DNA from: Candidatus Saccharimonadota bacterium
Lineage (GTDB): Bacteria > Patescibacteriota > Saccharimonadia > Saccharimonadales > Saccharimonadaceae
Assembly: GCA_017512045.1 (NCBI GenBank)
Contig: JAFWHE010000012.1
Location: 24,935-88,934, forward strand
DNA length: 64,000 nucleotides
Direction: 5' to 3'
Of the stretch, positions 49,907 to 62,190 are shown piece after piece. How positions within the stretch are numbered: the stretch's first letter is position 1; every line of letters begins with the position of its first letter. A program made the position numbers and the translations under genes. The notes under the pieces are model-generated. The model was given only the letters and a program-made list of their open reading frames with translations. It made no database searches and had not been told where the DNA came from.

Positions 49907-49982
49907 TGGTGGGGGCACCTGGGTTCGAACCAGGGACCAATCGGTTATGAGCCGACTGCTCTAACCACTGAGCTATGCCCCC
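49907..49982 (-). tRNA. tRNA-Ile2 (CAT anticodon, lysidine type); elongator Met less likely
   Basis: GGGGGCATAGCTCAGTGGTTAGAGCAGTCGGCTCATAACCGATTGGTCCCTGGTTCGAACCCAGGTGCCCCCACCA folds as a cloverleaf; the CGGCTCATAACCG arm matches Ile2 tRNAs; encoded CCA. Confidence 0.9.
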
Positions 49983-59868: not shown

Positions 59869-61251
59869 ATGGGAAAAAGATTCAATTATGAGTATGTCGT
59901 AATCGGCGGCGGTCTGGCTGGTATTACTGCTGCTATCCAATTAGCAGAGGCTGGGCGTAAGGTCGCAATTATAGAAAAAGACCATTTGGGTGGCAATAGT
60001 CTGTACTATCGAGATGTGCCGAGCAGTACGCTTTTTTTCCTTTCACATTTTTATTCTCGCACGATTAATGCCAGCAAACTTGGCTTTTCCTCTGCTAATC
60101 TTAAATACGATTATGCCACTTTTCTTAATCGGCGAGAAAAAGTAATTAGCCAGATTAATGCTACGAAGAAAGAACTAGAAGATCGCAAGATTGCCGTCAT
60201 TAAAGGGCGCGCGCATTTTGTTGGTACTAATGACATTGTAGTTGATAGCTATAAAGGTAATTTAGAGATTTCTGCTAGTAAATTCATCATTGCTACTGGC
60301 ACAGAACTTGACACTGGCACAATTGGTGGTCTGGACGAAGTGCCGTATCTAACCCCAGCCAGTGCGCTTACTATTTCGCATCCGCCAAAGGCCGTCCTGA
60401 TTGTTGGCGGTGGTGCGACTGGCTGTGAAATCGCTCAATATTACGCAGAACTTGGTGCTAAGGTAGTGATTGTGGAATTATCGGATCGTATCTTGCCGCA
60501 TGAAGATGAAGATATTAGTAAAGTTATTAGTCAGTATTTAGAAAAACGTTGTGGAGTAAAAATTTTTACCAATACAAAGGTAGTAGCATTAGAAAAAGAT
60601 AAAATTGCCACTCGTGCGGTATTTCTAAAAAACGGAGAAGAGAAGACTGTACGTGTAGGGAGTGTAGTGTTGGCGACTGGCCAGAAACCATTCGTAGATA
60701 TTGGTCTAAAAAATGCTGGAGTAAGCTATGACAAAAAGGGAATTATTGTAGACCGCACACTCCAGACTAGTGCACGTCATATCTTTGCTATTGGTGGAGC
60801 AATAGACAGTAAACGCTCTAGCGAGAAGTCTGCTTATACTGGTGAAGTTGCTGTGATGAATATGCTAGATCGTAACAAAACTTTTGTAAATTATGATGGT
60901 TTTATGCGTTGTATTGATACTGATCCGAGCATAGCTGTGGTCGGACTAACAGAGGATGACCTCATGAAGCGTAATCGCAAATATCGTAAAGCTCTAGTTC
61001 CACTTTCTGCTACGACAGCAGCCATTATCCGAAACTATAAATTCGGTTTCCTAAAACTATTAGCTGATAGTCAGGGTAAAATCCTCGGCGCAGCGATGGT
61101 TGGTCCAAACGCCTCAGAAGTGCTGCAAGAGGTGGCACTGGCGATGCGGCATGGTTTACCACTGATTCAGGTTGCTAGCACACCACACCGCGCAAATGAT
61201 TGGAATAACATTGTGAAAATCGCCGCCAGAAAATTATTGACAAAACGGTAA
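59869..61251 (+). CDS. Class I pyridine nucleotide-disulfide oxidoreductase (LpdA/MerA/Gor family) lacking the redox CxxxxC
   Basis: GGGLAG (FAD), GGGATGCE (NAD), TSARHIFAIG; GGNSLYYRDVPS where GGxCxxxGCxP is expected. Confidence 0.85.
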   Translation: MGKRFNYEYVVIGGGLAGITAAIQLAEAGRKVAIIEKDHLGGNSLYYRDVPSSTLFFLSHFYSRTINASKLGFSSANLKYDYATFLNRREKVISQINATKKELEDRKIAVIKGRAHFVGTNDIVVDSYKGNLEISASKFIIATGTELDTGTIGGLDEVPYLTPASALTISHPPKAVLIVGGGATGCEIAQYYAELGAKVVIVELSDRILPHEDEDISKVISQYLEKRCGVKIFTNTKVVALEKDKIATRAVFLKNGEEKTVRVGSVVLATGQKPFVDIGLKNAGVSYDKKGIIVDRTLQTSARHIFAIGGAIDSKRSSEKSAYTGEVAVMNMLDRNKTFVNYDGFMRCIDTDPSIAVVGLTEDDLMKRNRKYRKALVPLSATTAAIIRNYKFGFLKLLADSQGKILGAAMVGPNASEVLQEVALAMRHGLPLIQVASTPHRANDWNNIVKIAARKLLTKR

Positions 61252-61276
61252 AATCTGATAATATAGATGTATACGT

Positions 61277-61357
61277 CGCGGGGTAGAGCAGCCTAGTAGC
61301 TCTCACTTTGTGACAGCTCATGAGCCAAACGAGGCTCGGAGAGCATTAGCAGAATAT
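61277..61357 (+). pseudogene. Scrambled partial tandem copy of tRNA-fMet
   Basis: 61277-61302 matches the first 26 nt of the tRNA at 25/26; the remainder is rearranged and cannot form a cloverleaf. Confidence 0.7.
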
Positions 61358-61434
61358 CGCGGGGTAGAGCAGCCTGGTAGCTCGTTTGGCTCATAACCAA
61401 AAGGTCGTTAGTTCAAATCTAACCCCCGCCACCA
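61358..61434 (+). tRNA. Initiator tRNA-fMet (CAT) with a non-canonical anticodon stem
   Basis: CGCGGGG start, C1 mismatch, A11:U24, TTCAAAT T-loop, encoded CCA; anticodon stem TTTGG/CCAAA. Confidence 0.93.
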
Positions 61435-61458
61435 AGTTTTCTAAGTTCTAGAAAGCAG

Positions 61459-61497
61459 AAATGAGGTCACTTGTCCCCCCATAGTGGCCTCATTTTT
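61459..61497. terminator. Bidirectional terminator
   Basis: AAATGAGGTCACT-11 nt-AGTGGCCTCATTT followed by TT; between the tRNA and a convergent gene. Confidence 0.75.
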
Positions 61498-61500
61498 GTT

Positions 61501-62190
61501 TTATCCTTTAATAACTTTAAATGCCAATATGAATAGTGCGAGTACGAAGAACCCTATTCCAGAAATAACACGTAGGAATGTTTTGTTTTTTACACGCCAG
61601 CGCTGGATATCTACGGTGGTTTCTCCCCTCCTCACTGCTAGGCGTAGGATAATAAACGGCAGAACGGACAACGCAGTATAGATAATGAGTGCTAGAATTT
61701 GTAAGGCTTCCGGCAAGGAAATAATGCTGTTAGCGACAACCGTCACTAACACAAAAGTAAAAGGTGCTTCCGCAAAACAAGCCAACATTCCTAGTCCAAA
61801 TGCCTCTGTGTTACTATCAGTGATTTTGGCACGGCGATCAATGTATTTAGCAATGGATTTTGGTAGCCAAAGCTCTGTGCTTTTTCCCCAACGATAGTAA
61901 AATGTCCAAACACTCACTGCAAGTGCGGCCAGTATGATTGCTACTATTGTTAGCATGGCAGGATTCATTGGGCCTTGGAAGATTAAATCTATAACAAAGC
62001 ACATTGCCGCTACTGCTAACCCAGTTAACAGAGCGTTACCCAGGATATAATTAGTCACTAATTCACGCGTTTTCTTGCGGACATGTTTGCCAAGGCTAGC
62101 ATGATAAAGTAGAAGCAACGCGCCAATGCCGAGTTGTAGACTGGCATGGATTACTCCAGCTAATATTACAATAAACATATCCGGTTTCAT
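61501..62190 (-). CDS. Polytopic membrane hypothetical protein
   Basis: About six TM helices; start at ATG 62190, 6 nt after TGcTATAAT. Confidence 0.75.
   Translation of the reverse strand: MKPDMFIVILAGVIHASLQLGIGALLLLYHASLGKHVRKKTRELVTNYILGNALLTGLAVAAMCFVIDLIFQGPMNPAMLTIVAIILAALAVSVWTFYYRWGKSTELWLPKSIAKYIDRRAKITDSNTEAFGLGMLACFAEAPFTFVLVTVVANSIISLPEALQILALIIYTALSVLPFIILRLAVRRGETTVDIQRWRVKNKTFLRVISGIGFFVLALFILAFKVIKG

Follow-up and report, generated by a model that had tools for sequence, protein, structure and literature searches.

Initiator tRNA genes are known to occur in tandem, as in metZWV of Escherichia coli, and tRNA pseudogenes form arrays, as those of plastid trnF. Spacers of tRNA precursors can be functional (the 3′ETS of leuZ, which serves as an sRNA sponge in E. 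coli, and the rtT repeats of tyrT), and partial tRNA copies beside tRNA genes are a classic signature of integrating elements. We set these systems, together with T-box leader RNAs, split tRNA genes and intron-containing pre-tRNAs, against a locus of a rumen Candidatus Saccharimonadota genome at which a predicted leader stands directly before the initiator tRNA gene (the window, that is, the whole stretch of DNA analysed, is 64,000 nt long). The features of the locus are as follows.

61237–61264, + strand: sigma-70-type promoter (TTGACA, 16 nt, TAATAT with a TG extension)
61277–61357, + strand: whole leader (81 nt), a degenerate tandem copy of the initiator tRNA gene
61277–61302, + strand: 5′ mimic of tRNA positions 1–26 (acceptor 5′ strand and whole D arm)
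61303–61313, + strand: small hairpin TCAC-TTT-GTGA (TCAC at 61303–61306, GTGA at 61310–61313)
61315–61333, + strand: conserved core, running from an anticodon-loop copy (AGCTCAT) through the palindrome centre CATG into a 14-nt antisense segment
61322–61337, + strand: local hairpin of GAGCC (61322–61326) and GGCTC (61333–61337), whose loop shows AAACGA (61327–61332)
61338–61357, + strand: A/U-rich, unconserved spacer, the decayed 3′ part of the old copy
61358–61434, + strand: intact tRNA-Met(CAT) of initiator type (ARAGORN and the Rfam tRNA model), with C1 and C72 mismatched and CCA encoded
61381–61394, + strand: target of the leader antisense in the real tRNA (positions 24–37)
61452–61502, + strand: terminator-like hairpin (inverted repeat) with a C-rich loop, followed by a T run, which ends a single-gene transcription unit

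As with tandem tRNA genes and pseudogenes, the leader comes from a head-to-tail duplication, and the upstream unit is tRNA-length and co-linear with its parent; unlike tandem pseudogenes, its first ~58 nt are conserved against saturated flanks and it lies between the sole promoter and the gene. Like functional tRNA-precursor spacers, it would be a transcribed non-tRNA part with conserved base-pairing potential, but the pairing is predicted in cis, with the tRNA next to it, and the spacer is itself tRNA-derived. T-box leader RNAs resemble it in that leader sequence (here the AUG of the core) is complementary to the tRNA anticodon, whereas this leader lacks a Stem I, a T-box sequence and a terminator/antiterminator, stands before a tRNA and not before an amino-acid gene or one for an aminoacyl-tRNA synthetase, and pairs over 12–16 nt that include a stem strand; a cmscan of 61100–61600 gave no T-box match up to E = 10. 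Split tRNA genes (Nanoarchaeum) and intron-containing pre-tRNAs likewise present a tRNA 5′ half followed by a complement of the anticodon region, and the insertion point of the alternative fold described below is at the anticodon loop, as in those RNAs. Here, however, a complete tRNA gene follows, a bulge–helix–bulge is not evident and the anticodon-stem strand of the 5′ copy is disrupted; to our knowledge, bacteria are without the splicing endonuclease. The partial tRNA copies of att sites are also identical to part of a tRNA gene and also lie beside the intact gene, but the fragment in this case is the 5′ end and not the 3′ end, no element or integrase lies in between or nearby and the interval is tRNA-derived.

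The tRNA gene at 61358–61434 scores 62.5 bits with the Rfam tRNA model and is the single copy of initiator-type tRNA-Met(CAT) in this 733-kb, 97% complete genome; the second CAT tRNA (49907–49982, − strand) has G1 and C72, unlike the initiator. On the + strand of 60900–61800, no promoter-like site was found besides 61237–61264 and none within the leader, and a promoter inside the leader was rejected for this reason. Judged from consensus matches only, transcription probably starts near 61271, ~6 nt before the pseudo-copy, which would give a transcript of a ~87-nt leader followed by the tRNA. Other leader-bearing species have a −35/−10 pair at the same distance before the pseudo-copy; in leaderless species a promoter lies at that same distance, but before the tRNA itself. 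With the only promoter-like site upstream of it, the segment would be transcribed together with the tRNA, as its leader. The genome also encodes a type A RNase P RNA (226 bits).

Downstream of the gene, the terminator hairpins in the clade to which this genome belongs retain six or seven consecutive C in their loops (61452–61502 here, and the trailers of G065, G067, G122, G185, G191, G063 and G091), and these C residues complement the G run in the acceptor 5′ strand, whether of the mimic or of the real tRNA. At three further loci (L054, from genome G248, L060 and L063), the terminator hairpin is D-arm-like (GAGC, a 9-nt loop, GCTC) and is followed by a T run; tRNA-derived pieces thus also occur downstream of the gene. 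The orientation of the tRNA unit relative to the gene for a pyridine nucleotide-disulphide oxidoreductase (59869–61251 in the window) differs between species, being co-directional in some and convergent in others (L045, L048, L050 and L054 versus L046, L047, L052 and L053), which implies repeated inversion of the unit, or of the gene, in the history of the genus.

Part of this arrangement had been noticed in an earlier sequence-only reading of the window, and repeat analysis bore out its main observations: a near-perfect copy of the tRNA 5′ end 81 nt upstream (25/26 over 61277–61302), an exact 14-nt reverse complement between 61320–61333 and 61381–61394, and the hairpins TCAC/GTGA and GAGCC/GGCTC, both of which are present in the sequence. 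Taken one base further upstream, the direct repeat (61276–61302 and 61357–61383) extends over 27 nt with 26/27 (96%) identical and a start-to-start spacing of 81. The sole mismatch of the copy is at 61295 (A), in the D-loop of the mimic, where bovine and other gut runs have G; the copy is therefore 26/26 identical to the tRNA in other strains. By our own arithmetic, a perfect 14-nt inverted repeat such as that of 61320–61333 with 61381–61394 would be expected by chance about 3e-4 times in 401 nt; the repeat stops at 14 nt in this genome and reaches up to 16 nt in relatives. Given the ARAGORN and Rfam placement of the tRNA, the 14-mer is complementary to tRNA positions 24–37. Its complementarity takes in three D-stem bases (3′ strand), base 26, the anticodon-stem 5′ strand and, in the loop, bases 32–36 with the CAT. 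The earlier account of its reach thus holds for the D-stem 3′ side (three bases) and for CAT, whereas the anticodon stem, which had been described as covered, is covered on one strand only.

The segment had also been called a scrambled tRNA copy, a description that we replace: it is co-linear with the tRNA in a tRNA-length unit and is better called a degenerate tandem copy. The leader runs through tRNA positions 1–26, a remodelled anticodon arm and an A/T-rich remnant, and its length across 11 species (74–83 nt) corresponds to one tRNA plus a short spacer. The remodelled anticodon arm keeps the GGCTCAT and CCAAA blocks in direct order, and in G248 the leader sequence CTCATAGCCAAA differs from the tRNA sequence CTCATAACCAAA by one base. 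Neither ARAGORN nor the Rfam tRNA model calls the leader a tRNA, and both a T arm and an acceptor 3′ strand are missing from it. Genome G178 (L040) carries two intact tandem tRNA-fMet copies with a period of 83, and G177 (L051) carries the leader plus a partial tRNA-fMet copy downstream of the gene; on these sequence comparisons, the locus seems to undergo repeated duplication and decay. Co-linearity, the intact pair of G178 and a promoter distance equal to that of leaderless species together identify the leader as the decayed upstream member of a tandem pair. It is thus well supported that the leader goes back to an old tandem duplication of the initiator tRNA gene, after which the upstream copy kept the promoter and lost the T arm and the acceptor 3′ strand.

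The antisense is in part the copy's own anticodon-stem 3′ strand (CCAAA), and about five more changes extend the complementarity to 12–16 nt. These extra changes could have come from selection or from a quasi-palindrome template switch, and template switching may have perfected the palindrome. The stem of the small hairpin is TTAC/GTAA in G091, TCAC/GTGA in G191 and CCGT/ACGG, in shifted register, in other species. A leader peptide (ATG at 61320, 9-codon frame) was considered and rejected: clade A (G011/G248-type) has no ATG, the frame lengths vary and there is no Shine–Dalgarno sequence.

The stretch was found in 17 gut-metagenome runs from at least 8 studies, examined as assembled contigs. 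The one polyA RNA-seq run compared had no coverage of the leader, a result that speaks neither for nor against its transcription. A 7340-nt contig from goat and a bovine contig each span 60700–61382, which takes in the promoter, the full leader and 25 nt of the real tRNA, and further metagenome contigs resume at 61380; the contigs end inside the tRNA because it is common to many community members. Since contigs of independent studies cross the promoter, the leader and the tRNA start, the amplification or assembly artefact that had been entertained is excluded. The leader is also not unique to this assembly, as it is present in at least 11 species in addition to the metagenome contigs. Pattern searches detected the same architecture in at least 11/369 species genomes of the genus (Candidatus Nanosyncoccus in the records), a lower bound because the search patterns demanded the exact tRNA sequence. 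Two more Saccharibacteria metagenome-assembled genomes (MAGs) with a variant tRNA carry the leader, and a metagenome scan added six contigs with it. About 97% of the genus species searched are without the leader, among them G022, the sister of leader-bearing G065, and six sampled loci of other genera of the same order had no mimic leader. In a tree of the neighbouring oxidoreductase, the leader species fall into two deep clades with leaderless species nested among them (the oxidoreductase of this genome shares only 41% identity with its counterparts in G011 and G248, which belong to the other deep clade), and leader variants track the host clades.

We measured conservation as mean pairwise identity by segment over 15 unique loci and compared it with shuffles. 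The promoter (0.57), the leader 3′ spacer (0.59) and the trailer (0.48) are near saturation, with flank values of 0.46–0.59 that lie at or close to the shuffled baseline of 0.47–0.51. Leader positions 1–26 reach 0.94, the part from position 27 to the end of the core 0.82 (core, 0.80–0.82) and tRNA positions 45–77 0.93. The neutral evolution expected of a pseudogene is therefore not what we found (0.94 and 0.82 versus flanks of 0.46–0.59), and the contrast between leader and flanks also holds between the two deep clades. Recent transfer cannot explain the conserved core, since the spacer of the same cassette is saturated. The kept core comprises 12–16 nt complementary to positions 22/24–37 of the real tRNA. 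That purifying selection, together with gene conversion for the first 26 nt, keeps the 1–26 mimic and the core is well supported. Two MAGs (L171 and L144) have T at D-loop position 16 of mimic and tRNA alike, where nearly all other leader loci have C in the two copies; a change common to the two copies is sequence evidence for gene conversion or concerted evolution. Gene conversion alone could explain conservation of the mimic without any function, and the leader is dispensable, given that most genus species searched lack it.

Pairing energies point to the tRNA as the partner of the core. The duplex between the leader 3′ arm and tRNA positions 1–37 is predicted at −24 to −33 kcal/mol in all 15 loci, whereas the 3′ arm attains no more than −12 to −20 kcal/mol with the 5′ arm of the leader itself, in which there are insertions; the leaders of G091, G185 and G191 contain nothing complementary to their CCAAACG block. 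The best complement of the core genome-wide is the adjacent tRNA. The conserved pairing partner thus appears to be the real tRNA. Five substitution events were counted in the 12-nt core, of which four keep a G–U pair with the tRNA and one breaks a pair, a pattern that is only suggestive because its chance probability is about 0.07 (our own estimate). Two D-stem substitutions in the mimic also leave wobble pairs. In an alignment of 16 sequences, 12 pairs are kept, 4 columns show one-sided changes to G–U and pairing is lost in 2 cells. The sequence-only reading had suggested a search of relatives for the leader with compensatory changes; the leader was indeed found there, but the tRNA side is invariant and the changes are one-sided. 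In the RNAalifold consensus for leader plus tRNA, a 12-bp leader:tRNA helix is present and the 3′ strand of the real acceptor stem is paired with the mimic.

Folding was predicted with nearest-neighbour models, for which tertiary structure, modification, proteins and kinetics are outside the model. The leader alone folds to −30.5 kcal/mol in this genome, with the 61303–61313 stretch paired to the 5′ strand of the mimic so as to close a mini domain. For leader plus tRNA, the minimum free energy (MFE) fold lies 3.5–16 kcal/mol below the best cloverleaf-constrained fold. Set against shuffled leaders, this gain is exceptional in G063 (0/100) and G177 (1/100) and unexceptional in this genome (7/100) and in G067 (37/100). 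The ensemble probability of the native acceptor stem drops to 0.00 when the leader is present; the drop is the same when the 26-nt mimic is kept and the rest shuffled, so that the loss of the acceptor stem is due to the mimic alone and does not discriminate for the antisense. In MFE predictions for a chain growing from 61271, the finished leader forms a mini acceptor-plus-D-arm domain and the GAGCC/GGCTC hairpin with AAACGA in the loop. Once the tRNA has been extended as far as the anticodon, a 14-bp duplex displaces the hairpin (−42.7 to −52.4 kcal/mol) and lasts until the 3′ end appears. By this prediction, the antisense is held in the GAGCC/GGCTC hairpin as long as the real tRNA has not been transcribed.

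We tentatively favour, with a confidence that stops somewhat short of even, a selected cis-acting leader that clamps the 5′ half of the nascent tRNA. The leader would first fold alone, into the mini acceptor-plus-D-arm domain and the hairpin with its AAACGA loop. As the tRNA emerges, the antisense would capture the 3′ strand of its D stem, the 5′ strand of its anticodon stem and its anticodon loop while their own partners are still to be made, holding the 5′ half of the nascent tRNA in a non-native duplex, and the identical 5′ mimic could compete for the 3′ strand of the acceptor stem. Because the real acceptor and T arms can still form, RNase P cleavage at 61358 may remain possible. The leader would stay bound after this cut until degraded, and the combination of RNase P cleavage and leader decay would free the tRNA. 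The leader would in this way set the rate or yield of initiator tRNA maturation, the net effect being a delay or reduction of mature tRNA. Since selection has kept its tRNA-like start and a stretch able to pair with the real tRNA, the leader probably affects how the initiator tRNA folds or matures. A cis-acting leader able to refold the precursor was among the options of the sequence-only reading, and as a prediction it fits the conservation relative to the flanks, the pairing energies, the RNAalifold consensus and the growing-chain folding. The dormancy switch for an epibiont that had been attached to it is unsupported, given that ~3% of the genus species searched carry the leader, that close relatives are without it and that similar leaders occur in free-living phyla.

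The main rival, which we regard as unlikely although it deserves serious weight, is an entrenched relic without adaptive function. Gene conversion would hold its first 26 nt, and its core would be kept since point mutations would free tRNA-complementary or tRNA-identical pieces and so disturb folding, while loss of the whole in one step would be harmless. The repeated birth and decay of tRNA-fMet copies (the tandem pair of G178, the partial copy of G177 and the D-arm-like terminators of G248 and L060) is what such a history would produce, the change at D-loop position 16 common to mimic and tRNA (L171 and L144) agrees with it, and so does the fact that most species, close relatives included, are without the leader. 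In several other phyla, the natural leader shields the mimic better than shuffles do (L089, L118, L119, L134 and L152), which looks like the neutralization of a harmful decoy. The core, however, differs from the tRNA, so conversion cannot explain its conservation. A harmful antisense should mutate away, yet 12–16 nt are perfectly or wobble-paired in every lineage, and a 26-nt direct repeat 81 nt apart should delete readily, yet the leader persists in two deep clades.

An improbable alternative is that the leader has a function of its own that is independent of pairing in cis, as a released small RNA, as a decoy for a protein or nuclease or as a processing platform; in the decoy variant, the target would recognize the acceptor end or anticodon loop of the initiator tRNA. 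The conserved parts are indeed the acceptor 5′ strand/D-arm mimic and the anticodon-loop copy, leaders of unrelated phyla always keep the first 12–26 nt of the tRNA and otherwise differ, and the leader by itself has the stable predicted fold given above (−30.5 kcal/mol). No partner is known, however, and the best genomic complement of the core is the adjacent tRNA. The patchy distribution in the genus would also suit a scar left by an integrated or homing element that duplicated the tRNA 5′ end, or by an in-place gene replacement that left the old 5′ half, but this origin is very improbable: only 55 nt separate the repeats, inside the unit the tRNA order is kept over the length of a tRNA, each genome has one site and leader variants follow host clades. 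No integrase or nuclease genes were found near the locus; besides the pyridine nucleotide-disulphide oxidoreductase, the neighbours are a protein that matches no Pfam family and a Lamin Tail Domain protein.

A scan of species genomes for two initiator-tRNA starts 62–84 nt apart returned at least 120 loci, and among the matches listed, a 5′-end mimic precedes an intact initiator tRNA at at least 43 loci. These mimic-leader loci come from Alphaproteobacteria, Rickettsiales, Ignavibacteriota, Zixibacteria, KSB1, Bacteroidota, Chloroflexota, Gemmatimonadota, Firmicutes, Gracilibacteria and Minisyncoccia. Everything else in the scan is noise, made up of GC-rich coding repeats and two evenly spaced direct-repeat arrays. 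The two arrays, in an Acidobacteriota MAG (L170) and in Candidatus Ancillula (L179), have a period of about 69–78 nt and a repeat that contains CGCGGGGTTGAG; they look like CRISPR arrays that were matched by chance. No Rfam family matches the leader of this genome or the leaders in six loci of other phyla (including L077, L084, L095 and L105). A full-text literature search found no description of such leaders, and one may exist elsewhere in the literature.

Two kinds of leader recur among these loci. In Alphaproteobacteria (L070, L081, L103, L127, L134, L158, L167 and L176) and Rickettsiales (L094, L132 and L151), a 14–18-nt mimic is followed by GC-rich hairpins before the tRNA, and most of these leaders contain a 7–8-nt block (ACCGGGC) complementary to the D loop of the real tRNA; in L081, the mimic leader is located in the spacer between 5S rRNA and tRNA-fMet. 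Cultured carriers of mimic leaders include Sinorhizobium saheli, Algihabitans albus and Paracraurococcus lichenis. The other kind has a TCCCG-loop-CGGGA hairpin and is found in Ignavibacteriota and relatives (L077, L079, L089, L100, L105, L107, L117, L125, L139 and L172) as well as in KSB1 (L104), Cyclobacteriaceae (L109), Chloroflexota (L114 and L116), Gracilibacteria (L084) and L180; two Zixibacteria loci (L095 and L098) have the same hairpin type with TCCGG or TCCGC. The hairpin has variable loops and is placed after a mimic of 12–18 nt; an anticodon-arm copy follows it in many of these leaders, and in L084 it replaces the anticodon arm. This group appears to be a distinct second family of leaders. 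We rejected the idea that antisense blocks are general among the leaders of other phyla, because perfect complementarity of 7 nt or more is largely confined to this genus, where it faces the anticodon arm, and to Alphaproteobacteria, where it faces the D loop. It is conceivable, though in our judgement doubtful, that the present leader belongs with these loci to a widespread, undescribed class of initiator-tRNA leaders, each with an exact 12–26-nt mimic and lineage-specific hairpins or antisense, that control the amount of mature initiator tRNA and hence initiation capacity.

Initiator tRNA supply limits translation initiation, and a single gene supplies it in this reduced genome. If the preferred reading is true, a conserved tRNA-derived leader that holds the nascent tRNA in a non-native pairing would represent a novel means of tuning or delaying the maturation of initiator tRNA, an idea that can be tested at the bench because the same opening motif occurs in many phyla, including culturable Alphaproteobacteria. 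If the leader is an entrenched relic instead, the locus would provide a clear case of a duplicated RNA gene fragment that is hard to lose piecemeal.
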